A DNA stretch of 63,464 bases, filler included, from Folioceros fuciformis (taxonomy: Eukaryota), in the NCBI GenBank assembly GCA_049999805.1. It is 7 parts of 7 records of this genome, joined end to end, with 100 filler letters (N's around TTAATTAATTAA, not from the genome) between each part and the next. Parts side by side here need not be neighbours in the genome. Positions count along the whole stretch, not along the records: positions 1 to 26,166 come from JBNGIO010005351.1; 6 more parts are not named here. One strand, written 5' to 3'. Under the pieces are notes generated by a model. That model made no database searches. It saw only the letters and a list, made by a program, of their open reading frames with translations, and was not told the DNA's origin. Positions 1,171-41,183 of the stretch are shown here, one piece after another (position 1 is the first letter of the stretch; the number at the start of each line of letters is the position of its first letter). The position numbers and the translations under genes were made by a program.

Positions 1171-2041
1171 CCGCCAGGCCTCAGCATCCTTCCCGCAGCA
1201 GCTCCGCCTGTCCACAAGCACCTGCAAGGCTCCCGCATCCCATTCGAGATTCACCAAAGAAGAAGGCTGCGCCTGGAGCCGGCAGTCCTTCAGGCCTCGG
1301 ACTGCCAAGCGCTTTCCAGGACGCCCCGTCCGACCCCGCTCAAACCTGGCCTTCCTTGCCGCCATTCGAGAAAACGTACCATCGTTTTTTCGCGGGAACT
1401 TGTCCAATAGCACTTTCCCCTGCTCCGTAACGACTGGGGAAGTTAGACGAATCCTCCTTTGCACAGGTTCTACTGAGGACAGCGTCGAGCATCAACCTTC
1501 ACGACCGGAATATTTTCATATGTTTATGAGCCATGTTAGTTGAGCAAACATGCACTTGTTTTATCTGTAAGAGAGTTCTGCCGAAACTGGGCCAAATCCA
1601 CAAATATTGTTTAGCCACGTTATGAATGGCAGCATTTTTTGTTCCATAGACAGAAACAAGACGTATTCTATAATATTATAATAAAATAATTTTTATAATT
1701 TTTAGTTTTATTTACTTTATTTCAATTATAAATATGATTAAAGATTATATATATATACATATATATAACATTGAATTCCAATGAGCTCTTGTCATGTCAT
1801 GTTCAAAGAGGAGATAAAAGATTTGCGACTTTTATGCTTATCTTGAACATAATAAAATCACCTTTCTAAGGAACAGCAAAGACCTTCATGACAAACCCTA
1901 ATTTAACCTTATTCTAATGCAGTGTTGATGGGGTTTGATTAAACATCTTATTATGAGATTTTATTTTAATATTTTTGAAAAATTATTATAAAAATCCATC
2001 TTGAAAAACTTCATTACAAAGAGTTATGTCAAAAGAGGAAC

Positions 2042-3619
2042 TATGGAATACCAATACGGTCAAGGGTTGTTTGATAGAATGTTTTGCCCCTTTCGTACGG
2101 TCCAAATGTTTGGGCATCACAAACCTGCCCACATCGTTAGTCGGTAGCCATTTGGGCGTCCCGATAGAGACAATTCAGCGTGTACTAAGGGTTTTCCTAA
2201 ACTTTTGAGCAGCTGTCAGATGTTTTTCTTTCTGACACGTCCGTGTCCCATACGCTGGAAGCTCGCAAGACCTAGCTGTGGAAGGGAAGAACGCCGTGTT
2301 TTGCAAATGGAGCTCGATGCGGTGGAGGCGAGTATTGCGAGACACATAGCAATTGGCGAAGGAGGGTCCCTGGGGGACCGCAGCAGTGGTGGAGGCAGGA
2401 TGGCTAGGGAGGGCGGGGGGGTGTTGTGGATCGAAGTTCCAGGTCCAGCATCCCGCCAACAAGGAGGGTGCGGACGTGGGGGGGGCGCGAGCTCTCCTAC
2501 TCTGAGCTGTGCTCCTCTGAAGAGGAGGAGGATGACACTCCTGTGAGTCCACGGCAAGGTGCCGCTCGTGGCAGATAAGGGCGACGCACAACAAAAGGAG
2601 GCAGCAACAGAGGCAATGTCACGGACACCCTAGTGGACACGGTGCATGCTTTGCACAACAGCCTAGGCTTGGTGGAGTCCCTAGAATTTGTGCAAGCTGA
2701 GGGCAAACATACATGACTGTGCAGCAGATGTGGATGCTGCCTCTCTTGCTAGGGATCGCGAGGTTTAGGGATGCATGTGGCGTGGAGGGTCTGGAGGTGT
2801 AGGCAGGTTAGAGGCACTAGCCTTGGTGCTACAGAGATGGTGAACCTTTGGAGTTTTTCCTCAATCTACTGCTGATAGACTGATATTGTAGCAGCAGCGC
2901 TGGTAGTCTGCAAATGTTTTGTGGAAGGTTCTGTAGGTTGCCTTCTTGCCTCTGTGGTCCAGTTTAGTGAACTTGATGTTTTTGTGAACCCTGTAAGAAC
3001 AAATGTAATTGCTGCTGCTGTGGCTTCTTTTACCTGCAATTCTTAAGCTATCATTTGCAGTAGAACGAGCAACCTCAAGCTGCAGTATGATGGAAATGCA
3101 GGCTTGAAAATGATTGTTCAGTGGGGATGGTAGAGGCCTGAAATCCTTGGACATCTCGAAACTCGTGAGAGTTTTTCCATGCATGAAGTGGATTTTGAGA
3201 AGCACCTGAAGCAGAAAGTTTGTGTTGGTAGTTTCGCAAGAAAGACCATATGAGGCTGGTTCCGTAGGAATGCAGGATCTAGGTTTTTCAAGTAGATGCA
3301 CATTAGATTGAATGGGGTAGTTGTATAAAGGAACCGTGTTGCTGCAGTAAGTGTGTCAATGTGCACGTTGTGGACTAGACCCAAACCCGAAACTGTAAAC
3401 AACCCCTCTGAAACACTACCAAACCCTAACCCCCTCGAACCTCGAACCCTAACCCCCTCGGAAAAACAGTACCTCTACGGTGTATAGGTACGTCCCATGA
3501 CGTGGTTATGTTCCGTACGAGAATTTGTGGTAGATTTTACCATATATTCCCGTATAAAATATGTATACCAGAAAAAAAAATAATTGGTATCTAGGGTGTG
3601 TCCGAATTGGTATTCCATA
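2042..3619. mobile_element. Non-autonomous TIR DNA transposon, 1578 bp, 21-bp TIRs, 6-bp TSD AGGAAC (IS3EU-like termini)
   Basis: Left end TATGGAATACCAATACGGTCA (2042-2062) matches the reverse-complemented right end TATGGAATACCAATTCGGACA (3619-3599) at 19/21. AGGAAC sits at 2036-2041 and 3620-3625. No recognisable transposase inside. Confidence 0.8.
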
Positions 3620-3965
3620 AGGAACAACCACTTACATAGGTTAAGTAGTTTCAAAATATTTGATTATTTCTTATTATTAAAAAAATATAGAAAGTCTTAT
3701 TACTCCAATGATAAGGAAAAATCCAAACATTTCAAACATAGGAGGAACAACTTGAGAGTTCATGTAGACATGTTCTTCCTTTGTCAAAGGAGATCAAAGC
3801 AACAGCAAATAGCTTCTATTTACCTCTCCGTTCGAAACTGGAAAGATAATATGATGAATTGATTAAATATGTAATTTCTGTAAATAAAAAAAATGTAAAA
3901 AAAATTTTTATGTAAGAGAAAAGAAATTCCCAGCTACTGGGATGGGGTGGAGGGAGTATGGTGCT

Positions 3966-6630
3966 TCACACTGCGGGATGGTGGGCAGTGGTGTATTGGG
4001 GGGCCAGCCGGCGAGCTGGAGCTGGAGCAGGAACTTCTCTGGTTCTCTTGTACTGGTAGGACCTGGCAGCGATGAGGAAGAAGAAGGTGTTAGCAATGGA
4101 GATGACGGCAAGCAGGCCGTAGAAGTTCTCCAGGTTGCCTTGGTTGATGTTGAGAGGGAGCCAGCCCTGGTGGGATCCGGTTCTGGTGAGTTGACAGACG
4201 AGGGTGGTGAGGAACGATGTGAGGAAGTAGCCCACTCCCATGGCTGCACAGAAGAAGGCCTCCCCCGTGGACCTCATCTTGTCTGGCATCTCGTCGTAGA
4301 AGAACTCCATCTGCCCCACCAGGAAGAAGGCTTCGGTTATGCCCAGAATGCTCACTTGGGGAATCAGCCAGAAAGCACTCATGGGCAGGAGCATGGTTGG
4401 GCTCTCCAGCTGCTGCCCGACGGTGGCTGCTGCTATGGCCTTCCTCTTCACCTCCACCACACTGGCTGCCACCATGGCGAATACTGATGTCACCATGCCG
4501 ATCCCCATCCTCTGCAGCGTGGTGATGCCTCTTGGGTTCCCTGCATCGTGTGGTGGAGTGGTTAGAGGGTAGGGTGTGGTGGGAGTGAAGGTTTGAGATG
4601 GCACAGAAGGGCACAGGGTCTTGCAAATTCCCACACACGGTAGCAGAAGGTGAGGTTGTTGTTCATGACATGATCCGTGTCCTGGGTATTGTGTTTCTTA
4701 CCTGAGACGAGGCGGGTGAGGGGCACCAGGACAGGGTTGAAGAGGAGTAGGATGATGGCTGCTGTGATGACGGTGAAGATGCTGAAGGTGGCATGTGGGA
4801 TGGTGAAGCTCCCGATGTGGCGGTCCAGGGAGAGGGTCTGGACGACGGTGTAGCTGCTCACCTGGGCGAGGAGGCAGTAAGGGATGACGCTGGTGATCCA
4901 GATGGGGACGATTCTCAGCACCTGCTTCACCTCCTCCACTTGTGTCACAGGGCACAGCTTCCAGGGGCTTATGGGCATGATGCCTTCGTCCCTGAGGTGG
5001 ATGGTGCTTGCTTCCGTGACGATGGCTGCTCGGTCCAAGAACCTGCATTGAATGGGTCACGGATGTCAACAACAGTGAAGAATCTGATGCATTTCTTGTC
5101 GATCGGCATGCCCACATTGCTTGCGATGGAGTGATATCGATGTTGTGAACCTGAAGCTGGTGGTGTGGGGAAGCTGTCGTCTTCTCACGTCTGAGGTCAG
5201 ATACTTGTCCGGGATGACAAAGAGGCGGTGGTGGTGGTCAGGGAACGGCTCAGAACGCTTCCTCGTAGCAGCACAAACCACCTGTGCGATTCGAGTGACC
5301 CCGCTTCCGGCAGGCTTCTTGTACCTGTAAATCGGCGTGCCCAGAAAGAAGAACACCACACAGCCCAGAAATACAGCCCCAGGAATCCCGAATCCAACAG
5401 TTGTGCTCACGTTGTCCTGCCCAAGAAATTTCCGGAAGCTTCCAATGCTGAGATCACTTGCTACCTGGAGGCATCCATGCGCGTACGAATTCATGCAGAA
5501 AATTTACTGGTGATACCTGAACGTAGATGATCAACGTGAGCACGACCAAAGATCCCAGCTGCAGAGACAGGAAGAGGAGATTGAAGAAGAGAGGCCTCTC
5601 CCTCTTCTCTTCTAGGTGACAATCGTCGAATTGGTCTCCTCCAAACGAGGGTGTGCACGGCTTGATCCCTCCCGACCCGATGCAGATCATGTACAGCCCA
5701 GCATAGAAGACGGCCATGGATTTGCCCTGTGCTGGCCGGCAGGGCAGGGATGGCACACAAGGGGGAGGCTTCAGACTCTCCAGCGATGTCGACATGGATA
5801 GCACCAACATCCCCTGTCACCCACCCACACAATGATCCAAACATTTCAATCCTTGACATTCACGCTGGGTTCCCTAGAGAGATCGTGTGTACCACGAGCT
5901 TGCAAGACTGCATTGCTGCGTCCTGCATCCATCGAATCACCAGCCAGCTCTAGATCTTTACCCAGATGAGGACCAGCGAGGAGAGCCCCAGTGTTCGATA
6001 CCGCCCAAGGTACGAGTCAGCCAGGAATCCCCAGACCAAGGGCACCATGTACAAAGCTCCCATGAAGTTGGTGTAAGTTGTGGACGCCTTCTGGGAGCTC
6101 TGATGCAGCGACAGCAGCATGTAGGGCACCAGATTCGAGGCAACAGAGATGGAGGCAACAGCGTCTCCAAAATGCAGAACTGGGCACCAAGGACGATCCC
6201 AATCAATCACCACATGTACAGCAGCAGTGCTCGCAAACTGCAATCTCCAGGCCGGTGGACTTCCATGATATTCTGCAGAATCCCAACAAACTTACCGAAA
6301 ATGAACGGAGACGACTTCCATGTACCCGACTGGCTCCTCTCGGCAGGCAGCCCGGTCCAGTCCATGGACTGATCGTCTATGCACCGAACCGACAACTGAT
6401 CCTGCCATCACAAAAGCACGAATTCTTTCACCTCCAAATCGACTTCATCCACAGAACGGGCACTTCCTCCGTGCTTCTAATGTGCTTCCAACCGGTACGG
6501 GACCTGGGCTAGCAGTCCATACCTCCGGTGTCATGGTGTTGGACATGTCGATCTTGGTCCACTTGAACTGGGCCGCCGGGAGTACCGTCGTCCTGCAGCT
6601 CTCTGAAGCCTGGCAATGCGTGCCAGGCAT
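3966..6630 (-). CDS. NRT1/PTR family (NPF) transporter, copy A, multi-exon
   Basis: Exons encode GTWKSSPFIF, NLVPYM..NFMGALYMVPLVWGFLADSYLGRYRT, GGIKPCTPSFGGDQFD, YRYKKPAGS, WKLCPVTQVEEVK, GITTLQRMGIG, FWLIPQ, GQMEFFYDEMPDKMRS, GWLPLNINQGNLENFY. The start codon is uncertain. Confidence 0.93.
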
Positions 6631-7821: not shown

Positions 7822-10471
7822 CTAGCGCTGTGGAGTGACGGGAAGCCAGGGGCTGGAGCTACCGTCCGACTGCAACTGCGGGTTCTTGAGCAGCTGGACG
7901 TCGGAAGTTCTGGGAGCAGTGGCGATGGAAGACGTGGAATCGACGGAGTCCCGGGCTGGATCGAAGCGAACCGCCTCCAGCCGGGGGACGGAGTCCACCC
8001 TCTTGTAGGAGTAGAGCTTGGCGGCCAGCAGGAAGAAGGCGAGGTTGACGACGGACATGACGGCCAGGGTCCAGTAGAAGTTCTGGAGGTCGCCCCGGTT
8101 CAGGTTCTGCGCCAGCCAGCCCCCGTAGCTGCCGTGCCGGGTGGCGCGCGTCACCGTGGTCACCATGAAGCTGGAGATGAAGTAGCCCACGGAGACGCTG
8201 GAGCAGAAGAAGGCGGTGCCCATGGCTCGCATCCCGTCCGGCATCTCCTCGTAGAAGAAATCCAGCTGCCCGACGGAGAGAAACACCTCCGTTGCCCCCA
8301 GGAGCACCACCTGAGGGACCAGCCAGAAGGCGCTGATAGGCACGGGAAGCAGCGGGTTGTCCAGAAGGCTTGCCCGACGCGCCTGGTCTTTACGCTTGTT
8401 CTCGACCAGGGCGGCCGATATCATGGAGAAGATGGAGATGAAGAGCCCCACGGCCATTCGGGTCAGTGTGCTTATGCCCTTCGGGTTGCCTGCGCCATGA
8501 GCCAAACGAACGAGCAGGGTTTATTAGGGTTTTTCGACTTGTATGGGAGTGTGGAAGGGAAGACAAGCAAGCGTTGGAGGACGGAATGACAGATGCCAAG
8601 ACACACTCGTGAAGCACACAGCTCAGGAGATGGAAGACGATTTTGGTAGAGGACTGACTACGAAGCGTGGTGGAAACAGAGTTGGAAAGGAAGGTGGTGG
8701 TACCTGTGAATTTTCGGAGGAAGGGCATGAGCACTGGGTCGTAGATTGGGAGGAGTATGCTGGCGAAGATGAAGCTGAAGGCGCTGAAGGAGGCGTAGGG
8801 GACCTGGAAGTTGGGGCCCAAGTGGCGGTCCATGGTGATGCTCTGGATCACGGTGTAGCTGAAGATCTGGGCGAAGAGGCAGTACGGGATGATGGTGGTT
8901 AGCCAGATGGGTAGGACGTGGAGCACCCGCTTGGTTTCCTCTACTTGGGACACGGAGCACAGCTTCCATGGGCTCGTCGGTGTTCCGTCTGGGTTGAAGT
9001 CACCGCTTCTCACGACTGCTGCGTTGTCGAGAAACCTGCGACAGGAGGGACGTGAGGAGGAGGGGAAAGGGAGGTGGAAATGATGAGGACGGCAAGGGAT
9101 TGGGGAGGGGTGGTGGTCGATCTGACCTGAATCCGCGTGTGTGGGCGAGTTTTCTACCCTTCAGGGCTACGTTCTTGTCGGTGCTGTCGTAGAGGGCATT
9201 TGTGTCGGCAGGGCGGGTCACAAAGGCCTTTCGGAGGGACGCCACGAACACTTGGGCCATTCTGGTGAATCCGCTGCCTGCAGGCTTTTTGTGTCTGTAG
9301 AATGGTGTTCCTGCGAAGAAAATGAGGACGGTGATGACGAAGATGACGCTGGGGACTCCGAAGCCCCAAGTCCTGCCCTGGTTGTCCTGTAAGACAAGGC
9401 GTGCAGGAGGGGAAGCAGTGATCAATGTCGACATTGCAGAATTGTAGAGCGAAGCAGAGGTTTGAAGCTGTGTATGAGGTGATTCACTGGGGCAGTGGCC
9501 GTGGTGGATAGAAGAAAGTACCTGGATGTAGACGATGACGGTCAGGACAAGCAGGGAGCCAGCCTGCAAAGCCCAGAAGAGGAGGTTGAAGTACTTAGGC
9601 CTTTGGATCTTCTCTTCAGGAATGGACTCGTCGAACTGGTCACCACCCATGGATGGCACACAAGGCTTCACGCCAGCAGCTCCCACCGTCACCAGATAGA
9701 TGGCAGCGAAGAACACTGCTATGACCTTGCCGTGTGCTGGTTGGCAAGGCTGTGTCAGAGTTGGTGTGCACTCTTGGGGCTTCAGGGATGTGATGGCTGT
9801 TGATAGAGTGAGCAGTAAGAGCCCCTGCCATGATACAAAATTACGGCCTTTGAGATGGTCACCTCTGGCCGACACATTGTGCGCCCATGGATGAATCTTT
9901 AGAGGTCGTCCTTACCGCGGCGTAGATGACAGAGCCCACTGCAATGGTCCAATACCGGCCCAAGTAGGAGTCTGCAATGAATGCTCCGATGGTCGGAAGG
10001 ATGTAGGAAGTGCCCATGAAGTTCTGAAATGTCGTGGCGGCATACGCATTGCTTTGATGAAGGTTGATCACTAGATAGGGCACCAGGTTGAAGGCAATGG
10101 CCAAGTGCCCAACAGTATCTCCGAATTCTATGCCTGCATTTTTCAACAAGTGTTGCCAGGTTCAAACAAGAGCTGAAACACAGGTGAAGAACGGAGTCAC
10201 ATGAACCAGGTGAAAGCCATGGACAGGTCGTTGTGCAGTATTGAGCTCACCGAAGAAGAATGGAGCGGCTCTCCATGCCCCAGTCTTTTTTATGTCGGAA
10301 GGGGATCCTTTCAAATCATAAGATTCATCCCCTCTGATTTCTGTATGCGGCTCTGTGCTCAGCAGGTGACGGGGTGTCTCAGCCTGTTAAGAGACAAGGA
10401 AGGCAAGCAAGTGCTCAGAATTCAGGACAGCCTGCTCAGGCTCAGGATATTGGAAAGCAAGTACTGACCAT
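7822..10471 (-). CDS. NRT1/PTR family (NPF) transporter, copy B, multi-exon
   Basis: Exons encode KKTGAWRAAPFFF, NLVPYL..GAFIADSYLGRYWTI, GVKPCVPSMGGDQFDE, YRHKKPAGS, WKLCSVSQVEETK, GQLDFFYEEMPDGMRA, GWLAQNLNRGDLQNFY. The intron layout matches copy A. The inferred start is ATG|gtcagt at 10471. Confidence 0.93.
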
Positions 10472-12753
10472 CTTCGGGACCTCGACGCCCTGGAGTCTGA
10501 AGTCCTCAGTTCCTTCCCTTACGTCCTACCGAAACGCAAGACCAGAATCCATTTGCTGAGATTCATTCCGCACCCTTTCTTTCGAGAGAGCTCCACACCA
10601 TGGAAACAACGTCTTCTCTGTGCGAGAGAGTTATCAGGGGCATGACATGTGGCAGCCCAGGGCTTCACAGCCTGAAATTTTCATCGCAATATGCTCCTCG
10701 CTGTTCCCTGTCAGATTCAGTGGTGCCTTCCAAGGACTTCATGGGAAGCGACGGACACCAGAGGACAAAATGAGCTTTCGCTGTAGCTATCTTCCAACAA
10801 CGGCAGATATCTCACAAGCTGTTGGGAAGAATCAATCCAAAAGTCTCCTGAATACTAGTAAGATCCGACTCCGAGAAGAGAGGAATAGAAAGACTGCAAG
10901 AGCAAGAGCAGGACATAAAAAGCCAAATGCTATTTCCGATTATAAAATGGCGCACATAATAACGACTGTGAATGAGCGTCCGGTGGGGCAACCACGTCCG
11001 TTGTCCTTTAGTCTGTTGAACATGCTAGCAGTTGATCCCGTTCCTCGGCACATGCGCCGTGCCGGCAGCCGTGTGTCTCCTTCAGGGCCCGATCGACTGT
11101 CCGGCACGAATCATTCTAGAACGTTTCTGTCCCAATGCGAACAGCATTCGCTTTTTTCATCCATCCAGCTGGTGGGAAGACTTGCCGTCGATCGTGATGC
11201 GACGATCTTCCAAGGTTCAACTGATAAGAGCAACGGGCAACATAGCTGCAGCTGAGCGTGTGCTTGCAAGTCTCTATTCCTACAAGATACTTCAGATGCA
11301 AAGGCAACTCTGCCGTCTCGTCGCCACACAGCACCAATCAGACTATGCGCACTAGCGAAGAGCCTGATGAAACCTGAGACTCCCAGCGTGCCGGCTCGCA
11401 AGGTTGCACAATTCAAGCATCCGGCTCAAGATATGGCACGTTGTTGACACAATGCTGAGCAGCAATCGCTAACCTCACACCCGGAATGCCAGTAACGGCA
11501 TTGAATTCAGGAAATCCATAGTCTCCCGAAGATTACAACGAACGATGACGGATCAGACGAGAACTATCCAGTTACAACGAGCATGATGGCGGACCAGACG
11601 AGAACTATGCAGTAACGGCCTCTGAGTAGGCATGAAGCCACGAAGGCCCGTCCGACCGAGGTCACGAATCATGTTCCCTTGAAATTGTCAAGGCCATCGA
11701 GGCCTTGAAATTGGTAAGGACGCGGCCTTCAAGCTGCTTTGTGCATCCTGATGACCAGGCACCAGCAGATTCAATGCGATTTCCGGATGGCCAGTGCTAT
11801 CGGCTGAGTCCATCGTTTGCTCGTAAACGCAGGGTTACAATCCGAGGTCAGCCATCGTATTCTTTCGTTCAATCAAGACTGGGAATACCGGTGCAAATCA
11901 GTGCGAATTTCTTGCAGAATTCACAGGGTTTCCATCCTCTACTGTTGCTCTTGTACGCAGGGAGGCCGCGCAGTGCATGAAGGACTCGCCCGCGACAGAC
12001 TGGGGACTGTCTTCAGATCGGACAGGACCACAACCGGATCTCTTCTGTGGTCCTGACGGACACAGCAATGCTCGAGATACGTAGCAGCAGATTATTGTCC
12101 CTCCTCTCCGGGATAGAATTTTTTCGAGCAAGAGTAGTCCAAAGATGACGGCCGAACTTGTCACCTCCTTGGTGCTGATTTCGCGCGTCTTCGTAAGGTT
12201 CTCTCTCAACAGCAAGTAGACGCAAGGCTCTTTAGCCTACTGACGCAAGCCGAGAGCTGGCGTGCTTCGGAAGATGTCGACTCAGAGCTCTGTCCTGGAT
12301 GTCCTGCATCCATCACTCCACGGCTCTTTCCCAAGATCAATGTAGCCTTAAGCAGTGCTATATCTCAATCAGGATGAACATAAACCCACTCTTTGGAGGA
12401 ATAACTCGAGTAGGGCCAAAGGCCAAAAGGTTCTAGCCTCTTCCAACGTAGATAGCCTGTGGTGGCCTTAATGCAAGGAACAAGGCTCACGGAACTGCTG
12501 GCTGATATACACATTCGCCTCGGCTGGCCAGTAATGTTCTGTGCTGTAATGAACTAGGGCTATGACATACCAACATTGTACAGCTCATTATTTAAGCGCT
12601 ACCATCATCATAAGTAAGTACACTTGAGAGAATGCCAGAGGTCGTCTGGTACATAGAAATACAAGATCAAATAATAAATTGGACGAGCATTACAAGTGTA
12701 TCCTCCCTGTCAATTGTCAGGCGATGAAATATTCAACAGATCACTCCCGGAGC

Positions 12754-14776
12754 TTAAGAACTCGAAGAACTTTCAGTCCTTCGCTGAGAAAGAGGCACTT
12801 TCTCCAGCCCTTCCTCGGTGGGACGAAGTTCATCTTCAGGTTTGTCACCCAGATACTCCCGACATGTATGGAATAGAGCGGCATGAAATCCAGGTGCGTT
12901 ATCCAGAAACACGAAATGGCCTCCCTGCAAAGTGACAACATTCATGAATAAGAACGGAGTGACGGGTGCTCAGACTGTTTAGTGCTGAAAAAGAAGGTTG
13001 CAGACGTACATTGGGCACCCGGATCATCTCTGTTGGGACGTTCATCTGCTTCCGAGCTTCTTGAGCATCTTTGTAATTCATCCAATCATCGACACCATAA
13101 ATAAAAGTGGTCGGTACCTTCCAATCCCTAGCCCTGCTCGTACGCCATCGTTAAGAGCTTAGAACCGATATCGTGTCGAAACAGCCAAACCAAATATTTC
13201 AAGACAGACAGGCACAAACCTCTTAAACAAGGGCGATCGGGCAAATGCTCCCAGGGAAAAAATGTACTTGAGGCATAGCTCCCCACTTGCTCTGGCCGCA
13301 AGCGTATGGAAAATATAGTCTGCACAGAGGGCGACAAGGTCGCTTGGTCCACGGTCTGGAATGGTTCACCTGAACAGAAGCAATGCAGACATCTTCAACA
13401 ACCAACCTGAGAAATATGCTGCTTCCTTGTCGTCCAGCCCAGTGCCAGTCGTATACAGCCCGAATCGTGCTCCTGTGTATTTACGGACAAGATTTGGCCC
13501 AAAAGGACCCAAACTCCTGCACGGTCACATGGAGTCAGGTCGTCTTCCTTATTTTGTTTGATCAATACACTGCAAGAATCTTGATCTGAGCCAAGACCTT
13601 TACCTCACAACCTTTTGTGGAGTCATATTGGAGTCCCAGAAGAAGTTGAGAATGGCTCCACGCCATGTAGACCTGAATTGGGCAATGCGATCTGATTCTG
13701 GGGACATTCCAGCTGGTCCCACCAATATCAGATGTTTCACGTGTTCCGGATGCTGCCAACCATCAGATGAGCTCGCGAAGTCAAACTAAGTAAGTTCATC
13801 CAAACCAGTAGCAGAATTACTGCAATTAAAGATCAAATCGGACCTTCAGAGCATATCGGGCTGCAACATAGCCTCCAAGCGAATGTCCAAGCAGAATAAA
13901 ATTGTCCAGATTCTTTGCCTTGCGCCACTCTTCAAATGAATCCACGAACCAAGCTTCTGTCTCTGTTGCACAAACACTATTCTTCCTCAGAATCCATTGG
14001 ACACATTGATCCAAATCAAGAACCTCGTCGCTGCCCTACACAGAGGATATTCTTCATAAGAGCTGATGTGCTGTCGCTTAAGAGACTTACCTTCGGTGCT
14101 CGTGCAGGTGAAATCAGGACGACTAGAAGCACCCCATCTGCATAAATTCATGAACAGATTTTGATACCACTGATACACAGTGAGCATCAAACGCAACCAA
14201 CTGCAAAGCAAAGGCAACAGGAAGGAAGAGCCAAACGAGTGACGAGAGAGACAACCCACACTCACCCGAGCTGATCAATTGCAACCACACGAAACCGCTC
14301 CGCAAGAGCATCGAAATTGCGGAAGAAGAAACCTTGTGATGCACCATAGCCATGCACCAGCACAATTGTGGGGGCATCTGGTGGAGCAGATTGGTCAAAA
14401 GTGACAGTGTTTATGAACCGGGGCTCATTGCTAGCTGATCGGAACCATCTCACATTCGATCCGGGCGGGCCAGACCCAATGTTCACTTGCTCTTGAACGT
14501 AAGGTGACCTGCCATGCCAGGGGAACATAACATCCAGATCTCCGAAAGGACTAGCAAACGAATGCAAAAAAACAAACACTCCAGCAACTTTCTGTACCGC
14601 AAGAGGGAAAGAAGTTGCTTTTCAGACTGAATAATCTCCTTCCTCGAGGTCGGACTCCATCGCAACCGCCGTTGCCAGCTGGTAACCCATTGCCATTTAT
14701 TGTTGTGCAAAACAACAGCTTCAGCTGACTTCGAGGAAGACTCACCAGCGCTGGTTTTGGACGCCGCTTCAACCAT
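12754..14776 (-). CDS. CGI-58: CGI-58/ABHD5-like alpha/beta hydrolase (lipase / LPA acyltransferase), multi-exon
   Basis: [21 protein letters not shown], nucleophile elbow [48 protein letters not shown], and C-terminal HX4D motif GGHFVFLDN. All expected exons are present. An alternative ATG lies at 14800. Confidence 0.92.
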
Positions 14777-24300: not shown

Positions 24301-26166
24301 TTGGCCACATGCTGAGCCAGCGCACTGGATGAACCAATATAGCCACGGAATGCAGCAAGGAGTGTTTCCCGTAATCTTGCCCCCATATTTTGCCGAAACA
24401 TTGGTATTCGAGAAGGTGAGAAAAATTTGACCACCTGGTTTGCTTGTAGGCGCACGAGGATGCTAGTAAAAAGCCGGAGATTGTTTTACAGTTCTGTCCC
24501 TGTTTTGGGCATGCAGGCAGTTGAACTTGTGTACTCGCGGTACCGAGTCATATTATTTGGGCTGGATGCTGTCTCAAAGGATGGCCTGTACCGAGAGGTC
24601 CTTCTTTATCCCAGAGGACGGATGCTGAAATCTTCGGATGTTGGATTAGTTATTGCCAAAAATTTGGCGCAAGCTGAGCAGGTGTCGCAATTTGGTCGTC
24701 ATCAGAGTCTTACGACCTGCACCTCCCTACTGTCATGGATGTTGAGGAGGCCTTCCAGAGAAAAGCTAGACAACGATCTCCTGAACGAGGTGGGGGTTTT
24801 GAGGCATCTGCATTACCAAAAGAGTGGCTTATTGTAGCTGATTTCAGATTGTTATCTATACTTGACGGCTAACATCTATGTGATGAGCAGGTTGTGAAAA
24901 AGCATTACTACTCGGATGATGATGAAGCGGCCAGCCAAGAGTACGCTATCTCCTTCGATCATGCAGAAGAGATGAACCACCAGTCGGGCAGAAAAAGGGG
25001 ATCAGGTTCTGGAGGCAAAAGTACGAAGGGGAAAGAGAGTGTGATGGAACCCATATTGTTTGTTGCAAAGCATGGCCAGGATTGCCGGGCTTGTCCAAAT
25101 TCAGCGAGGTCTTCATGTCTTACACTCGAGGATGCCGTAGACAGAGCTATGAGTTGGCCTCCTCTGAATAAATCCCGTCAGCCAGAACCTCCTGTACTGG
25201 AGAGGAGAGAGGACGCTATTTCAGTGAACTTGAGGAACAGCACACTGAAGGTGGTTTCTCTTGAGAAGCCACACATTCTGGTTTGCATCAAAGGGGATTG
25301 GCCCTCCAACCTCTTCATTTTCGTGTCACATTTGAGGACGTCTGTGCAGCCAAACCCTCCTATCGTTATCTTGCACCCTGAGGTGCCAAGTGTGGCAAAA
25401 TGGGGTTCCGTTGGCATGTTTGATAATGTGTATTTTGTCAAGGGCTCTCCAGTGTACGAGCTTGATCTTGTTCGGGCTGGCGTGCTACAAGCAGGTACGT
25501 CGCGGGTTTGAAAGCGAGCTCTGAATGAAGCTGTGGGTTTCCGTACTTATTAGAAAAGTTGACTTCTTAAAAAAATGATGTGTTCCTGCAGAGAAAGTGG
25601 TTATTCTGACTCAGAGCAACAACAACCAATACCAGCCTGGACAAGAGCCTGTCGACGACGGTGATGTCGCAGCTTCTCTTTCCTTCACCTCCGATGTTGA
25701 GAACGTCCTCATTGCAGCAACGGTTGAAAGGCTTCAACAGCCGACGGGGCACCGGCTCATCACTGAACTGCAGGATGATGTGAGCATCCAGTATTTAAGG
25801 CCAAAGTTTCACATCAAGCGCCAACAATTTGATCACGAAATGTATCAGAGAAATCGACATGCGTCCTTCCAATACGTGCCGTCTTACATCGAGGGGAAGG
25901 GCTTTTGTCCCTCGGCTCTGACGTTTCTCTTGTAAGCTTTTTCAGAACCATTTCACTTTCATGGTTGCTACGTTGTCTGTCATTTGCAGGGCCGTGTCAG
26001 ATTTGGGTGCAACTTGAGTGTCGAGATATGTTTTGGCAGGTATTCTTCGTTTTTCAACAGAAATACCGTGAACATAGTCGAGAGCTTTATATCAGGTGGG
26101 CAGGCGTCCAATTCTCTTGTCGACGGGCAGAAGGTCCCAGCTCTAGACCAGATTGAGATGCCCAAG
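21344..26166 (+). CDS. BK/Slo-like large-conductance K+ channel (6TM-1P plus two RCK domains), multi-exon; N-terminus uncertain, C-terminus cut by an assembly gap
   Basis: S4-like LVLRILRYRK; pore ALYLMIVT|ISTVGYGD (filter at 23075-23092); PYGGTF..RLIIISGNLS..FLSEFYH; DPDTEDAAQIVR; IICPEEIRFKLLARGCYIKGLSTFVTNLF; RCK2 PHILVC, YFVKGSP..DLVRAGV, LITEL. Confidence 0.9.
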
Positions 26167-27295: not shown

Positions 27296-28926
27296 TGTTG
27301 ATATAAATGGAGAGCAAGAGAGATGAACAACCATAAGGCAATAGAATAAAACAACAATAATACAAAGTCATGTAAAGAGTTTATATATCTATGCTAGGCA
27401 CCCCTTCGCTAAAGTGATCCTTGAATAATTAAACTAAACTTAACTAACCATAACTAACCAGGGGTAAACCCTAAGCGAGTGAGGTTACCCCGTGAACACC
27501 CTCCCTTAAGCGAGACGAGCTTAAAAGTTATGACGGGACTGAGCAAGGGTCTAGCGAAGCAAGTGAGGACGACCATGAGGAGAAGATGGGCACGCGAGGC
27601 GTAATGAGCGACACTCATCACTCAGAGAGGACGTGTGAGCTGGAGCAGAGAATAAATCTCGCATCAGCCTACGCAGTGCTCCTCACAGCCATCTTCCTGT
27701 GCGCCCAGATCGTAAGGGCAATACTGCCTTATACGATGCCTAGGAGTCGTTCATCGAAGCGGAGTAAGAGTAGCAGTGGGGCTAGGAGAGCTCGTCTTGC
27801 TAAGCGTCCAGCAGTGGAGAAAGAGTGGGGTGAAACCCATGTGGTGGAGACCAGCTTAAGGGTTGGCGGCTGGAAAGTGTTGTTCAACGTGACCTTGTGC
27901 TGGACAAAACCTGGGAGAGAAGAAGCACTCCCAGCAAATACTGGCGATGAAACCAGCTTGATGAGGCCGCTATAGGAGGCACATGGATTACTTGGGTTGC
28001 TGAAGATACTGCAAGAAGAAGAGATAGCAGTCAGGGGAAACCAGCGTGCAGGTGATTAGGTTAACGTCGCATTTCATCCACCTGACTTGTGTTTCATACT
28101 GTTGCTTCCAGAGTGTTCAGACTATTGTTGTGTTGTAGTGGCTAACCCTCCCTGTCGCCTGATGACAGGCACATAAGAACACAAAAGGAAAAGCTATACT
28201 CCACAATACTGAGGACTCGGGCCTCACCCGTAAGTCCTGTTTGCAGTATGTTAACCTGTAGGCTTGAAATAGGGCTGAAAGTTGATCAGCCTAAGTGCCT
28301 GCATGTGCTTCTTGTGCTTATCCTTTGGTAGGGCCTTTGTTAGGATGTCTGCTCTGTTATTCTCAGTAGGCACATAGAGAATTTTAACTAACCCCCTCGC
28401 AGCAGCATCTCTAACATAGTGGTGATGGAAGTCAATATGTTTCGTTCAAGCGTGGAATCGGGGGTTGGCAACAAGGGCGATGGCAGATTGATTGTCACAG
28501 TAGAGGTGAGTGGGGCCATCTTGTGTCTGCCCGAGGTCATGTAAGAAAGACCGCTCCCATTCCACTTCCTTAGTAGCATCTGTGAAGGATTTGTACTCAA
28601 CTTCAGTGCTTGACAGGGCGATACTGGTCTGCTTCTTGCAGCTCCAGTTGATGGAAGCATGAGTGAGGAGAAAAGCATAAGTGGACAAACTCTTACGGGA
28701 GTCACTATCTGAGGCCCAATCAGCGTCGGTATATTCTTCAAGAATAAGCGGAGTGGTCTGGTGTGCTCCTCGTCGATAGCAGAGTCCAATATAAGGCGAG
28801 CCTTTGAGGTAACGCAGAATACGTTTCACGGGAGTCCAATGAGCACGACCAGGGTTATCCAAAAACTGGGACACTATATTGATTGAATGTTGGATGTCAA
28901 GCGCATCCAATTGCTGACAAAAAGCA
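27296..28926 (-). mobile_element. Ty1/Copia element D, 3' part: RT/RNase H end, ~750-bp extra region, PPT and 203-bp 3' LTR
   Basis: YTDADWASD..RKS, SIALSSTEVEY, LYCDNQSAIAL..NPRFHA*TKHID, pol stop at 28251-28253. PPT gcttaagggaggg at 27511-27499. LTR TGTT..AACA at 27296-27498. Confidence 0.8.
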
Positions 28927-31900
28927 TGGAAAATTACATACTAGGATCGAGAGAACAAGATTGCAAAAAAGAAAGAATTAAATTGTGCACGGCCGGGATC
29001 GGCCTTAAGGNNNNNNNNNNNNNNNNNNNNNNNNNNNNNNNNNNNNNNNNNNNNNNNNNNNNNNNNNNNNNNNNNNNNNNNNNNNNNNNNNNNNNNNNNN
29101 NNNNNNNNNNGGATCGGCCTTAAGGCAAGAAGTGGGTGCGTCGGTTACCGGGGTCGTGAATGACGGTTAGTTAGGTCACGACTCTATGAAAGGCCGGAGC
29201 GTTTCATATCCCGGCATTTCACACCTAATGAATAAATTAATTAATTAAATAAGGCTGACTAATTAAAATGATAATCACTACGTATTCGCATTTTCCATAC
29301 TCCCACTTAGACAGATCTTCATTACTTTCGACTCGCCGTTAGGTTTGCTCCCCCTTACGGCAGCTGCGATGGATTGCGCCGCCGAGGGCCAGGTTGAGTT
29401 TGCAGTCGTGTTGTTGTTGGCTGGCGTGCTGATCCTTCTTGCGCTCCGCCAGAGGAAGACCTGTTCCTTGTGCGTTGAGTTTGCGAAGCTGCACAGTGCT
29501 GAGGCTGAGCTGGAGACAGCACATGCTCGATGGAGGCGGCTGCAAGGTTTTTCCTCGCCTGGTACCATATGCGCCATTCAGAATGCTTCCAAATTGCATG
29601 GACAGATTCTTGTACGCCGGGTCTGAGTTCACAGAAGAAGGACGGCTCATCATTCGCTATGGTGAGGCCATAGGCTTCGTGAGATGACGCCTCACTGATG
29701 TCTTTCCATTCTCTCTGCTGACCCGCTCTTGCCTTGCGCACAACCCTGGTACACGTGCTCCACTGTGATGCTTACTTGCCGCTTCAAGAGCAGCTATTCC
29801 TGGAACAGGATTTTGAGCTAGTGCTATTGCTAACTGGTTGTCACACAAGAGCAATGTAGGTGCATTTTGGGTTTCACCTAGTGAGGAGAGCAGCTCCCTT
29901 GTATAAACTATGTCCTGAGCAGCAGTAGTTGTAGCAGCTTACTCTGTTTCTGTAGAAGATAGGGCCACGACCTGCTATTTCTTGCTATACCAGGAGATGA
30001 TTGTAGCATCATACTCGTGTGCTCCTAGTAGCAGGTAATTAGCTGATATTCACCTGCGAGTGTCGGCATCAGCTACCCAGTCCGCGTCACAGAAATAGGT
30101 CATCAGCAGACTCTTGGGCCTCTGCTTGTACGGCAAGCCAAGTCTTGGAGTGCCTTTCAGGTATCTCATCACTCTGTACTACAGTCCAGTGTGTTGTTCC
30201 ATAGCAGGTTAGGAATTGGGAGGTTACTCCCACTGCGTATGACAAGTCTGGACGTGTCCAGTTTCTCCAGTAGATCAACGAGCATATTGCTGACCGATAG
30301 GGGACCCTCTCCATCTGCTGCCTTTCTGCTTCTATTTTAGGTGACTGTTCTGTACTAAGTTTTTCGCCAACAGCCATAGGTGTTCCAACAGGTTTGCTAT
30401 CTACCATTCTGTACCTAGCCAGTACTTGACTTATGTACTGTGCTTGATGTATGAACACCGTGTGTGTTGCCATGTTCTGCAGGATCTCTATGCCAAGGAA
30501 CCACGTGAGCTTACCCAAGTCAGTCATACAAAACTCAGAGGTAAGTATGGTTTTGACCTTAGCCATGATTTTTGGGTTGCTGGCAATAAGGACTATGTCG
30601 TCCACGTAGAGGGCCAGGAAGACCACTCCATTCTTCTCCTCCAGCTTGTATACGTTGGAGTCAGACTTTAACTGCAGGAAGCCCGACTGCTTGAGGTATG
30701 TGTCAATACGTTTGTAACAAGCTCGAGGGGACTGCTTCGGTCCATAGATGGTCTTAATTAGTCTGCACACCTTTCCTGGATGTTTGGGATCCACAAACCC
30801 CTCCGGCTGACTCATGAATATTGTTTCCTCCAGAGTCCCATTCAGGAAGGCTGTTTTGACGTCCATGTGTTCCATGGCGTAGTCCCTTTGTGCTGCTATT
30901 GCGAATAGTGTACGGACAGAGGTGGCCCTGACTATAGGAGAAAAGGTTTTTGTATAGTCCAGGCCTTCAACTTGGCTACACCCTCTTGTTACGAGACGAG
31001 CCTTGAAATGTGCTATGCTCCCATTAGCTGCAAGCTTTTTCTTAAATACCCACTTGCAGGTTACTGGCTTTCTACCAGGAGGTAGGTCCACCAGTTCCCA
31101 TGTATCGTTGTCCAGCAGTGACTGGTACTCTGAATCAATTGCCGCTGACCACTTTGACGCCTCTTGCCCGCTGATAGCCTCTTTGTAGGATAGGGGCCAT
31201 CCCAAGCTGTCAGGTGCGCTATCATCCTGCACAAGGAATGAGCTGTAGGTGAGGGGTGGTGTTACCCACTCATCGAGCGAAGCTGTGTGTCTCCTACTGC
31301 TTCGTATTGGCAGTTCAGCTTCTGGAGCTGATTCCTCCTCCGTCTCTGAGGCTTGTCCTTGTTCACGTTCCGTGACAGCTGCTTTCTCTTGGCTGCCAAT
31401 GTGGCTGCCTTCTGTATCCGCTTCATTCTCGTTGGTGTCAGCAGTTCTAGCTTGGGTGTCACCAGTGGTTTCCGCATCTTCGTCATCTGGGAACACACTT
31501 GCGGTCTGGTCGACAGTAGCTACAAGCACGTGAGCAAAGTGGGTTGTGGTGCTGGTATGTCTCCTCACTGCTTTGCTCTTCAGTGGTCCCACTTGTGAAT
31601 GCTTCCTGTTCAAGTACCAGCTCCGGGAGCTCAAGAGGAGGTGTGAGGAGTGACAGCTCGTCGAACACCACACTCCAGCAATGGGTGGTGCTTCTAGTGT
31701 TAGGATCCAGCAATTTATACCCCTTAACACCTTTTGTGTAACCCACGAATATGTACTTGTGTGCCTTATAGTCGAGCTTGACCCTTTGGTCCTCGGACAA
31801 GTGTGTGTATGCTGGAGCATCGAAAATCCTCAGGTGATTTATTCGGGGCTTGTGGGTTGTCCAGCAACCCTAAACCCTTGCTCCTGTGAACATGCTGGTA

Positions 31901-34900
31901 GGTACCCTGTTCCTGATGTATACAGCCGTACTAACTGCTTCTGCCCAGTACCCACGTGAAAGATGTGCTTGCTGCTGTTGAAATAGCACCACAGGCTTAG
32001 AAGGACTCCACAGTTCCTTACTTATGGTGCACAGGATGCTACATATATAGCCTTCAGACGGGGCAACCCTCGATAAGGTAAGCCTTAGTCTCGAGGGTGC
32101 AATATCCTAGTATATCCTGATATACCCTGATAACACTTAGGTGATAAATAACTACGAGTTCAATATAGGATAATCTACACTATCCTAAGTGTTGTATGCT
32201 CTTAATAACAATTCAGTTAGAGCTTGATTTCTAACACTCCCCCTCAAGCTCAGACTATTTGTAACACTCCAAATAGTTCACGAAAGTGTAAGAACTTATC
32301 TCTACCTAGCGACTTAGTAAAGATATCTGCTACCTGGTCTTCAGTCTTCACGTGCCGAAGCTCTCTCTTCTCAGATAATACCACTTCCCTGATGAAATGA
32401 TAATGTACTTCTATGTGCTTCGAATGAGCATGAAACACAGGATTAGTAGCCAACCTCATGCTACTCATGTTGTCACAGTAGATTGTAACCTTGCTATTCA
32501 CTATATTTCCAAGATCATGTAGCAACTTCTGCAACCAAGCTGCTTCACAGGCTGCCTCTGCAGCTCCTCGATACTCTGCTTCTGTGCTTGACAAAGCAAC
32601 TTTCGGTTGTTTCTTGCTTTGCCATCTGATCATACTACTTCCCAGATTAAATGCATATCCACTGGTTGATCTTCTGTCATACGCACAACCAGCCCAATCA
32701 GCATCTGTATATCCTGTCAGTTCAAGATGCTTCCTATGCTCATAGAGCAATCCAAACTCAGTAGTTCCTTTCACATATCTCATGATTCTTCTAACTGCAT
32801 CCAAGTGCGGTTTTCTTGGGTTCTGCATGAATTGACTAATAAGTCCCATTGCATAACTTAAGTCAGGACGTGTGATAGTCAAGTAGATCAAACTTCCGAC
32901 CATTTGTCGATACATAGTCACATTTTCCAGCTCAGCTCCTACATCCATTTGCAGCTTGACGTTCTGCTCCAATGGTATATCCATCGCTTTGCAATCTGCC
33001 ATGCCATACTTCTGCAACATATCCTTAGCATATTGTTTTTGGAATAGCCAGATTCCTTGAGGTGTAGATACAACCTCAATTCCTAAGAAGTATCTGAGTT
33101 CACCAAGATCCTTCACCTTGAACTCTTTTTGCAGATTCACCTTGACATCTGCAATACCATCTGCATCATCTCCTGTGATGATCAGGTCGTCAACATAAAC
33201 GACAAGACACACTTGTCCTACCTTGGTCTGTTTTACAAACAGACTGTGATCTGCGTCTCCAATCACAAACCCTCGCTCCTTCAAATAGCTTGTGATACAA
33301 GCATTCCATGCTCTAGGTGCGTGTTTGAGTCCATACAATGCCTTCTTCAGTTTGCAGACGTACGTTGGAAACTTAGGATGAACATAGCCTTCAGGCTGTT
33401 CCACGTACACTTCCTCCTGCAACTCACCATTCAAGAAGGCATTCTTGACATCAATTTGCCATAACTTCCATCCTTTAGCTGCTGCTAATGCTATGACTAT
33501 CCTTACAGTTGTCATCTTGGCTACTGGACTAAAGGTTTCCTCATAATCAAGACCATACTGTTGTGCATATCCCTTTGCAACCAACCTGGCTTTGTAACGC
33601 TCCAGCGTTCCATCTGACTTGAACTTCAGCTTGTACACCCACTTAGAACCAATAGGAACCTTGCCATCAGGCAATTGAACCAAATCCCACGTTCCGTTCT
33701 CAACTAATGCTGAGTATTCTTCATCCATGGCTTGACACCACTTATCATATGTCACTAAGCTACAATGCGCAACATTATGCGTATACGACAAGGGTCATGG
33801 CTTGTAAGGAGCCAACCAAGTTTGCTGATAGGTGTACCTGTCAATGGGTTTCCTAACCCTCTCATATCTCCTTGGTCTTGGTTCATTTTGAACCTGCCTT
33901 GCATATTGTTGCTCCTTAGCACCTGGCGTTTCCTCAGACGGAATGCCAAACTCATTGTCAATGCTCTCACTACTTGAGGATTCATATCCCTCATTTCCAG
34001 TTTTGCTGCTTTCTACTCTCCTCCTCACTGACATATCCGAGTCAGTCGTCTTCGGTTTACCATTCCGCAGTCTTCCAGACCATGGATTCACCGTTGGTGA
34101 TCCACCATTGGTCACATCCTCACTCTTTGCTGGAGTACTCTTAACAGTACTCTCCCCTGTGGGTTCGTCATAGGGTAGTGCAATTGAGTTGCTATACCAG
34201 GAGGCTAACTCATCAAATACCACATCCCTGCTTATCAAGATCTCATGTGTGGATGGCACATAACACTGATATGCCTTCCTATTTCATGCATACCCCAGAA
34301 AAACACTCTTTACTGCTTTATGATCCAGCTTCCTACGCTTCTCATCAGGTACATGCACATATACAATGCACCCAAACACTTTCAAGTGCCTAATATCCAG
34401 CTTATAGCTATACAGTCTCTCAATTGGTGTAGCATCATGAATTCCTGTCGTAGGAGTTCCATTCAGCACATACACTGCTGTCATCACTGCTTCTGCCCAA
34501 TAATCATTCGGTAAGCACTTCTCATTCAGCATTGCCCTTGCTGTTTCCATGACTACCCTGTTCTTCCTCTCTACAACGCCATTCTGCTGTGGTGTGTATC
34601 TACAAGTCAGCTATCTTCGTATACCATGATCTGCAAGATACCTGTCAAAACTCATTTGAGACATATTCTCCCCCTCCATCTGATCTTAGACAAGAGATGG
34701 AGCAACTGAATTCATTTTCAGCATGCTTTTTGAAGTCCTTGAAAGACTCGAACACTTCATCCTTATGCTTCAGTATGTACAGCCACGTGTACCTGCTGAA
34801 ATCATCAATGAAGGAGACATAGTAGTGGGCTCCTCCAAACGATGCATTTTGTGAAGGACCCCATACATCAGAGTGTATCAATTGCAAAGGTCTCGAGCTG

Positions 34901-37866: not shown

Positions 37867-38660
37867 TGTGGAGGCAAAACCCCGGGCACTGATTGCCAAT
37901 GGGTTCCACCTTTAGTGCCCACACTTATCCCACTGTCGTTGAGACATTGGGTTTCGTTCCCACGAAGGAGCGATGGGGTTCCTTGCTGCTGTGGATGGAG
38001 GGTCGGACTTGATCGACTCGATGATGGATTCGAGGGCTCCCCTCTAGCTCTGATTAGGCGTAGGACAGGCCTCGCTGTCCGGCGGTTAGCTGCACCTCTC
38101 TCGGTGCCCACAAACTCACTCCAGTCACTACAACGACTCTAACCTCTCATATCTGCGACTTCCCTCACACACTTCACTCACTCTCTCGCTCCAGCACCAA
38201 CACCAACAACTACCAGCAACCAACAACGACACCACTACCTTCTACACTTCCCTACGGACTCCTCCTACCCGGCAAGAGTCACTAGACTAACCCCAAACAA
38301 AAGGAAGAGGGGAACACACTCCCCTCTTGGGTATCTCCTCCCCACAACCTTACCAGACGCCATGAGACATGGCCGGCCTACAGCACTTGACCAAGCAAGG
38401 AACAAGAGTGGACAGGTTGAGAGAAAGACACACCCTTTACAATCAAGAGCTAGGGGCAAGCCCCTACACCCTGGTCATTACACCTTGTGATCCTACCAGA
38501 CACTATACAACCGGCAACACGCTGCCCGCGATCCTACCAGACACTGTACAGCCAGCAACACACGGCTTGCGATCCTACCAGACGTTGCATAGCTGGCAAC
38601 ACACTGCAAGTCCTAAACCAAGCAGGGACAGACCACAAGAGCTCAGGAAGAGAGGACCTC
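37867..38660 (+). mobile_element. Terminus of a high-copy element (probable LTR, family E) inserted into element A
   Basis: Starts TGTGGAGGCAAAACCCCGGGCACTGATTGCC. The same terminus occurs at 44935 (+) and 38922 (-), and an internal part recurs at 57365-57537. Three ~41-bp internal repeats lie at 38489-38610. Confidence 0.7.
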
Positions 38661-38760: not shown

Positions 38761-38922
38761 TCCATCATCGAGTTCATCAAGTCCGACCCTCCATCCACAG
38801 CAGCAAGGAACCCCATCGCTCCTTCGTGGGAACGAAACCCAATGTCTCAACGACAGTGGGATAAGTGTGGCCACTAAAGGTGGAATCCGTCGGCAATCAG
38901 TGCCCGGGGTTTTGCCTCCACA
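38761..38922 (-). mobile_element. Family E terminus, inverted copy
   Basis: Reverse complement of 37867-38028, beginning at the same TG. Confidence 0.8.
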
Positions 38923-39117
38923 GTTTGAATGATGGAGCTTCAACTACTAGACGAAATTTGGGACATTCTCAAATCATGTACAATGGTTTGAATGATGGAG
39001 CTTCAACTACTAGACGAAATTTGGGACATTCTCAAATCATGTACAATGGTTTGAATCATGGAGCTTCAACTACTAGACGAAATTTGGGACATTCTCAAAT
39101 CATGTACAATGGTTTGA
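38923..39117. repeat. Tandem repeat, 63-bp unit x3
   Basis: gtttgaatgatggagcttcaactactagacgaaatttgggacattctcaaatcatgtacaatg at 38923, 38986 and 39049. Confidence 0.95.
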
Positions 39118-40379
39118 AGCGCTCAATCTTTGTCACTTATCTCACCAATCTTTTCGCTTTGAAGAATTGGATCGGTTCCTGGATCATCTACAACAAGGTT
39201 TTCAAATGTTAATTGACATAGTTGACAAGTTGTGAGTATCATCTATAGGCTAAATTTCAAATTGTGCAACCTATTGCAACTTGCTTTTTGACGTCAATGG
39301 ATTCTACAGGGAGAATTAGGGCCATGCTCATCCTGAGGTTCCCCAAATTTGAAAGGACATCGTTTAATTGTGTTAACCGTTGTTTTTTAGGGTTTCCAAG
39401 AACTCATGAGTGCATTCATTCTGGTGGTGCTCATGATTGTTCAAATCCTTCCCAACTTGTTGCCGACATTCAAAGGCATATGCAAGCATGCTCTTTCAGT
39501 TACTACATTAAAAAGCATGTGCTGGCATTCTCTCCCACCTACTGTTGGTGTCTTCTTGGAATTTGTTGGTCTTTTCTCTAGAATGTCTCTTGGTATGTCG
39601 TCTTGGGGTTTTTCCCACACATCTCCTGGTTCACTTGAAAGAGACATGAACTTTCTTTTGTTGTGTCTCCTTCTGCAATGATGCACATGTTTGTACATGT
39701 CTGCATCAACTGGGATTAGCAACTCTAAAGCTTCTTCACCTAGGTTGTCCTCGTGTAACATTTCAAACTTTGAGATAGAGCAACAAGTTAGAATAATTAA
39801 GCTCTTGACAAACTATCTACACTCTCTTGGACAAGCTAGTCTAGTTTCTCAATACATAGTTCCTATTTTCGAAACGTTATAACGACACCAGCTATTACCT
39901 CTACTTCTATTGGTGCAACCTACTCAAGAGATTTTAAGGAAACATACCAATTTGATGGAACCCTAAACCTATTGGTTGAAATCATGTAAGCCTAACTTCA
40001 TCCAGAGAGACATCTTCGACTTGGTTTGTTAACTCAAGTGCAACCTCCCATGTCTACAACAATCATGATCTTTTCCCAACGTTTCACAAACAGAGCACTC
40101 CTCTATCAGTATTTGTTAGAGACTGTCATGGAGTTGAGGTCAAAGGAATAGGTTTAGTTTGTATACCTTTGCTAAATGCCTCATCTCTTGTGTTCAAGAA
40201 CATGTTGTGTCTCCCCAACATGAGTAAAAATCTACTTTCTATATGTGCTGTTGCTCTTAAGTCATAGGTATGGATTTCAATTTGAGCATAGCACATGTCT
40301 TGTCTATGACTTAGTAGATCCACTTAGCTATGTTACAAAGATTGTGTTAGTAAACAACTTGTATAAGCTTGTGCCAGTT

Positions 40380-40700
40380 TCTTAGGGAAGTGCACACTAT
40401 TCTTTGGCACACTCGGTTAGGACATGTAAATTAGGCCAAGATTGATTTTATGTCTTTCTCTAGTTGTTATTGGGAGAAGCTAGCATGTTTTAAACATCTT
40501 GCTTTGTGTAGTTCGAAAGAGTTACCTTTCAAGAACAAAACCTACACATGCCAAGGTAGTTTTAGAGCTTATCTACGAAGATGAATCAAGTAGACTTCCT
40601 GTTAAATCCCTTGGAGGTGCTCAATATTACATGACTTTGACTGATGATTTCTCTAAGATATATGTAGACCTTTCCCTTGAGGTGAAGAGTGATGTCTCCG
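40380..40700 (+). pseudogene. Heavily decayed Copia pre-integrase/integrase remnant
   Basis: LWHTRLGHVN near 40403 and VKSLGGAQYYMTLTDDFSK at 40600-40660, with many stops. Confidence 0.7.
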
Positions 40701-41176: not shown

Positions 41177-41183
41177 TCGCTCG

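Follow-up and report, generated by a model that had tools for sequence, protein, structure and literature searches.

The element at positions 2042-3619 of the window, the whole 63,464-nucleotide stretch of Folioceros fuciformis DNA analysed here, is almost certainly an old hornwort member of the IS3EU/GingerRoot DNA transposons that is non-autonomous and arose by internal deletion. This copy has decayed since its insertion and is probably inert. It is 1578 bp long and is bounded by a left terminal inverted repeat (TIR) beginning TATGG (TATGGAATACCAATACGGTCA; 2042-2062, plus strand) and a right TIR ending CCATA (3599-3619, minus strand); the terminal 21-mers agree at 19 of 21 positions and are thus 90% complementary. 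Immediately outside lie the two copies of the target-site duplication (TSD), AGGAAC, at 2036-2041 and 3620-3625 (both plus strand). Direct reading confirmed these features, which the earlier note had described, as did a search of the full window for inverted 21-mers that agree at 19 or more positions and have an exact flanking 6-bp repeat; it gave two matches, the element included. The stretch 38874-44983 was rejected as a second element with a 6-bp TSD, its 6-mer being palindromic and lying within a longer inverted repeat.

The left terminal segment (2042-2249, about 208 bp) is conserved in the family, and many matches begin or end at element position 208-220, which may mark a deletion junction. 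In one longer relative, L072 (L-numbers denote loci fetched from G000, the 87-Mb F. fuciformis assembly), about 1.5 kb of extra sequence containing a transposase exon lies between the matches to element positions 208 and 256. At the other end, the right subterminal segment (3463-3619) closes with 144 bp that are 84% identical to the end of L071, an 8077-bp transposase-bearing element, and is preceded by two subterminal copies of a 16-nt direct repeat (3422-3460, plus strand). A second inverted motif, with halves at 2091-2100 and 3513-3523, is present as previously noted; its standing as a conserved family feature in that form did not hold up. Only its 6-bp CCGTAC core is common to both ends of the family, and among the 26 TSD-bounded copies described below the window copy alone has CGTACG at both ends. 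Of 32 rows aligned at the right end, 30 read A at the first C of the window's CGTACG, so that the second half is partly a private mutation and the motif is mostly private to this copy. Evenly spaced CGTACG words were likewise rejected as a family feature, as they are absent from 24 of the 26 elements.

The element is one of a dispersed family. The assembly holds at least 31 matches to the left end and at least 33 to the right end, and the terminal 11-mer TATGGMATRCC occurs 647 times in the genome versus 55 times for the reversed control, which suggests a few hundred copies. The TSD was tested on all 93 inward-facing end pairs within 12.5 kb, from 193 ends on 68 contigs. The 6-bp flanks agree perfectly in 23 of these candidate pairs and with one mismatch in 15, compared with 0.05% and 1.1%, respectively, of 8218 cross-contig control trials. 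Perfect duplications of 4, 5, 7, 8, 9, or 10 bp are found in none of the 93, while four pairs have one of 2 bp and two have one of 3 bp. The 6-bp match is absent from 55 of the candidate pairs, and many join ends of different or nested elements. The 38 matching pairs collapse to 26 distinct elements of 0.4-8.1 kb, 14 with a perfect duplication and 12 with one mismatch. The cleanest proof of the 6-bp duplication is provided by a 411-bp copy nested in the left end of another copy: empty paralogous sites on 15 contigs, the window included, have continuous flanks and a single 6-mer with no TA. Nested or abutting family members are present at C6178:232278-233700, C2044:5804-6923, and C4556:308-396 of G000, one of which gave this proof.

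Across the 26 elements, the TIRs are about 10-22 bp long, and GG occupies element positions 4-5 in about 49 of the 52 ends (the TAT at positions 1-3 was demanded by the search). The TSDs are 55% GC versus 42% in the adjacent 6 bp, and their first position is C or G in 38 of 52 symmetrised cases. Element ends are tandemly copied 3-8 times at L016, L054/L130, L059, and L060, often together with the TSD and a little flanking sequence. As an enriched feature, however, such tandem duplication was rejected, since 8 of 116 end clusters (6.9%) fall within tandem repeats, versus 5.5% of the bases in the loci that hold these clusters.

Three siblings of 1.2-1.7 kb have the deleted structure of the window copy, each at another site and with its own 6-bp TSD. 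These nearest siblings are 84-85% identical to the window copy (K2P 0.13-0.14, about 14% divergence), and because they share the deleted structure at this distance, the short form itself was mobilised and is old. The read contigs hint at relatives closer than the assembled copies. By depth in those contigs, a rough measure, the flanks (about 11) look single-copy and the interior (up to 197) multicopy. No joint skipping 2042-3625, as an empty allele would give, was found in the contigs of four runs, which represent at most two samples. Contigs of run X1 span both element junctions and one contig of run X2 spans the right junction; these contigs may derive from the source sample and are thus uninformative on polymorphism of the insertion.

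The window copy contains no transposase sequence, so that it is assigned to the family by the ends and interior it has in common with other members. Its longer relatives do carry an IS3-like DDE transposase, as the earlier note had anticipated: Pfam rva_4 has 31 matches in G000, and rva_4 exons lie inside two elements bounded by family ends and TSDs. The first, L071, has family-type ends and the TSD AGGGAG, is 84% identical to the window copy at the right end and 82% over part of the interior, and holds the first and last transposase exons without the middle one. The second, L082, is a bounded 5154-bp element of a second subfamily, with TATGGCATGCC ends and all three exons. At L072, L074, L119, and L123, sequence matching the window copy's interior (69-83%) adjoins the last transposase exon, always on the left-end side, and the rva_4 exons are oriented alike relative to the ends at all four of these loci as well as in L071 and L079. 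Relative to the transposase of L072, L119, and L071, the left TIR lies on the 3' side and the right TIR on the 5' side.

Along the gene, the motif order is WHMD, intron, SYDK...HAAIDG...RSD...GPSVHNQ, intron, RIEHFW, and the two introns keep constant positions in most of the 12 transposase copies examined. The gene encodes a DD35E core with catalytic motifs WHMD, RSD, and RIE, in which 35 residues separate the second D from the E. The middle exon scores better with rva_4 (E = 1.3e-12) than with rve (8e-5), and its top three Atlas clusters are rva_4. Neither an HHCC motif nor any Pfam match is found in the 101 residues preceding the first D. None of the copies examined is a complete, intact autonomous element; they are interrupted by stops, frameshifts, contig ends, or runs of N.

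The ends and the transposase also bear on whether the family could instead be hAT, from a subgroup with 6-bp TSDs (hAT6-like), the integrase pieces having simply been acquired by its longer copies. The hAT families hAT5, hAT6, and hAT7 do have unusual TSD lengths (PMC12730594), and the window copy itself supplies no coding proof. Against this stand the constant orientation of the rva_4 exons to the ends in six loci and the lack of any hAT domain among 72 open frames from L071, L075, L082, and L119. In addition, the ends fit TAYGG..CCRTA, as reported for IS3EU (PMC12730594). A hAT origin has thus been largely refuted already and is now very improbable.

The transposase of the longer relatives, by its sequence, is almost certainly a member of the IS3EU/GingerRoot lineage. 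IS3EU elements have TA..TA ends and mostly 6-bp TSDs, and form one lineage with GingerRoot at 99% bootstrap (PMC10045372). GingerRoot was described in Selaginella lepidophylla, with matches in 18 mosses and 3 lycophytes, and likewise has 6-bp TSDs and TA..TA ends (Cerbin et al. 2019, PMC6839031), while IS3EU families of rust fungi have TAYGG..CCRTA ends (Kojima 2025, PMC12730594). Hand counts gave 45 of 89 identical residues between the middle exon of L090 and SL_GR-020 and 41 of 87 with Sl-GR-005, and the spliced WHMDSYDK of the F. fuciformis transposase is also the SL_GR-020 motif. A HMMER profile search of 1.84 billion proteins gave 490 transposase relatives; a word-indexed homologue search with a transposase exon gave nothing among 95 candidates. 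A quick tree was made from the best 150 of the 490 and 10 copies from the hornwort (88 columns, no outgroup or reference transposases). In it, the 10 copies form one clade with support of 99. The branch linking this clade to P0003, a GingerRoot-like protein, has support of 88, and the one linking it to three proteins of S. moellendorffii has 90; both fall below 95 and so have moderate support. P0003 is itself identical to Sl-GR-005 at 66 of 87 positions (hand count).

This placement bears out the earlier note's reading of a non-autonomous, IS3EU-like element in a land plant: the family has 6-bp TSDs throughout, TATGG..CCATA ends, and an rva_4 partner sharing both ends and interior. The genome-wide check of the termini proposed there found them to be multicopy rather than single-copy, with TSDs of 6 bp and none perfect at 8-9 bp; no divergent set of ends or TSDs came to light, and no hAT, MULE, or P partner among the longer loci analysed. 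Where the note went astray was in treating the superfamily as one of animals and fungi, which implied that an occurrence in plants was new. GingerRoot, of the same lineage, has been published from lycophytes and mosses (PMC6839031, PMC10045372); thus, the assignment to IS3EU was right and the surprise was not.

A separate, unnamed integrase-type superfamily that merely resembles IS3EU/GingerRoot would account for the short TIRs, the unclassified second gene discussed below, the tree support of 88-90, and the fact that the nearest proteins are mostly unnamed. Such a superfamily would nevertheless have to share about 50% identity with the published GingerRoot cores, including the WHMDSYDK variant, and to equal IS3EU/GingerRoot in TSD length and end motif, and we consider it highly unlikely. 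As the TIRs are about 10-22 bp rather than 100-150 bp, the family is filed under the superfamily and not with the Selaginella GingerRoot families. Finally, a Tc1/mariner-type element with TGG..CCA ends, a TA duplication, and AGGAAC by chance, although it fits the TA that flanks TGG..CCA on both sides, is the least credible alternative of all, with next to no probability left to it: in 26 elements the duplication consists of the six bases outside the TA, whose sequence varies from one element to the next, and a TA duplication is excluded because the empty sites carry a single 6-mer and no TA.

An internal-deletion derivative of an IS3EU/GingerRoot transposon suggests the following history. A full-size ancestor, probably larger than 8 kb, would have carried the transposase, a divergently oriented HECT-ligase gene, and a further small gene; loss of its middle would have left a short form that kept both ends and could be spread in trans by the family's transposase. 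By DDE chemistry, from which these transposition steps are inferred, the transposase would bind the roughly 20-bp TIRs of the short copy and join them to the target at cuts 6 nt apart, and gap repair by the host would then double AGGAAC. The donor may be either excised or copied out, the latter being the route of bacterial IS3 elements.

Part of the interior of the window copy appears to be the remnant of such a small gene. Positions 2255-2768 (plus strand, antisense to the transposase) would be a 3' exon, now decayed, from a second gene of the element, with one stop and two frameshifts; the relative at L119:5411-6103 (minus strand) keeps a 231-aa frame open across the window copy's stop and frameshifts. 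The evidence for derivation from a coding exon is statistical only. Among 19 copies, variability at the third codon position is 0.31 versus 0.22 and 0.21 at the other two (permutation p = 0.0009); the transposase, used as a control, gives a stronger signal (0.48 versus 0.24 and 0.19). The proposed frame also has the fewest stops, 13 in 1261 codons compared with 22-60 in the other frames. The protein has no Pfam match and no usable Atlas match (recognition 1767, below the mark of 2300).

A HECT ubiquitin ligase may also be part of the element. HECT has 25 matches in G000, among which a distinct group with the catalytic Cys motif occurs in 4 of 26 transposase loci, encoded in the direction of the transposase and some 0.9-1.6 kb upstream of it (L090:2382-2792, L081:4798-5208, L077:2645-3055, and L168:5000-5410). 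Members of a second HECT group, at L129:4094-4498 and L167:2246-2650, lie beside pieces of the window copy's subfamily. The two groups are about 40% identical to each other, and the transposases likewise fall into two groups. At L129, the HECT domain precedes both the second gene and a right end; at L167, the start of the HECT reading frame lies in a stretch that matches the interior of bounded L071 at 86% identity. Three further HECT copies are on contigs of 1-3 kb with no transposase match. No HECT domain is present in the bounded transposase elements L071 and L082 or in the fetched span of 22 of the 26 transposase loci. Because no HECT locus is bounded by paired ends (none in all four loci with both HECT and transposase, where some stretches hit contig edges or N), we infer rather than observe that the ligase is element-borne. 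We found no published paper that reports IS3EU together with HECT; the C-terminal part of the S. moellendorffii protein P0047, HECT-like by eye, was rejected as it gave no HECT match. On balance we lean, by a small margin, toward the view that the hornwort elements are multi-gene, with their own HECT E3 ligase, arranged in tandem or divergently depending on the subfamily, and a small coiled-coil-type gene whose remnant fills the window copy. Such a ligase would perhaps degrade a host silencing factor or control transposase levels.

Alpha-kinase was also considered as an element partner and rejected: its two matches are on one contig, with no transposase match in the 10 kb fetched. These two strong domains, at C5673:10180-10773 and 12677-13252 of G000 (L151 and L152), include one within a 661-aa open frame. 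The alpha-kinase family is unusual in land plants, and the domains could reflect a transfer or a foreign contig.

Outside the element, the 3' exons of an NPF/PTR transporter (Pfam PTR2) occupy 3966-5600 on the minus strand, and the stop of this gene is some 340 bp away from the element. Contigs of run X3 lack three CT..AC stretches within this interval and extend to 3931. A second, tandem NPF/PTR transporter gene (PTR2) is located at 7822-9911, also on the minus strand. A BK-type potassium channel gene is represented at 24873-25508 (plus strand) by a Slo-like RCK domain (E = 2e-13); flowering plants are not known to have such a gene. Elsewhere in the window, several frames of Copia-type retrotransposons (RVT_2, rve, gag_pre-integrs) lie at 28446-38138 and 45118-52213, interrupted by stops and contig gaps. 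Between these two stretches, 38761-45069 is a contig of 6.3 kb with a near-perfect inverted repeat at its two ends. The repeat is at least 119 bp long, seems to reach both contig edges, and has arms covering at least 38804-38922 and 44935-45053. A 49-bp part of this repeat has 100% matches on many other contigs (40 of 734 candidates were scored), and the contig probably represents a long-TIR element that is young and present in many copies. At 55279-55908 (plus strand), a frame containing seven or more CCHC zinc knuckles probably encodes a cellular nucleic-acid-binding protein. A 199-aa frame at 61012-61611 (minus strand) contains Cys-rich motifs and has no Pfam match; presumably it resembles the N-terminal part of Sola-type transposases. 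Of 160 residues in the first exon of VPS4 in the window, 158 are identical in a protein labelled Nothoceros aenigmaticus and 152 in the next, from Ginkgo; in a small tree the N. aenigmaticus protein groups with mosses and liverworts. This single gene thus identifies the host as a hornwort.

Since the superfamily is already published in non-seed land plants, what is new here is its occurrence in a hornwort and its possible HECT partner. We found no published report of a hornwort IS3EU, GingerRoot, or Ginger element, a statement to be read with the proviso that Repbase and the GingerRoot tables S5/S6 could list one. The hornwort occurrence provides a second bryophyte lineage alongside the mosses and agrees with a published proposal that GingerRoot existed in early land plants, with loss at a later stage. 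A few hundred copies of this kind would presumably escape, or be misfiled by, TIR pipelines built for the superfamilies of flowering plants. Should plant elements really carry the HECT ligase themselves, one could test whether such a transposon-encoded enzyme serves to counter silencing or to regulate the element itself.

Among known systems, GingerRoot of S. lepidophylla (PMC6839031) shares with the hornwort family the 6-bp TSD, the TA..TA ends, and the integrase-related DDE core. Both have GC-rich TSDs (61.2% versus 49.6% for the genome in GingerRoot, 55% versus 42% for adjacent sequence here), and both reside, with many truncated copies, in a compact non-seed plant genome. The two differ in TIR length (about 10-22 bp in the hornwort, 100-150 bp in GingerRoot), in copy length (bounded hornwort copies are mostly 0.4-2.7 kb, GingerRoots 3.9-12.9 kb), and in age, the window copy being older, with 84-85% identity to its nearest siblings compared with a GingerRoot mean of 98%. 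About 340 bp separate the window copy from a gene, while the S. lepidophylla GingerRoots tend to be far from genes. The hosts listed in the GingerRoot paper are Bryopsida and Lycopodiopsida, and it mentions neither hornworts nor, in contrast to the HECT neighbour seen here, HECT or ubiquitin (PMC6839031).

The IS3EU elements of Kojima and Bao (2023, PMC10045372) also share the TA..TA ends, the 6-bp TSD, and an IS3/IS481-like core, and like the hornwort core have WHxD, HGxID, RSD, and SxHNQRIE motifs and no upstream HHCC; the host differs, the IS3EU rows examined in that paper's supplement coming from animals. The IS3EU families of rust fungi (PMC12730594) share the TAYGG..CCRTA ends, the 6-bp TSD, and the presence of a second gene opposite to the transposase. 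They differ in having TIRs longer than 30 bp and, as partner genes, alpha-kinase and TET/JBP.
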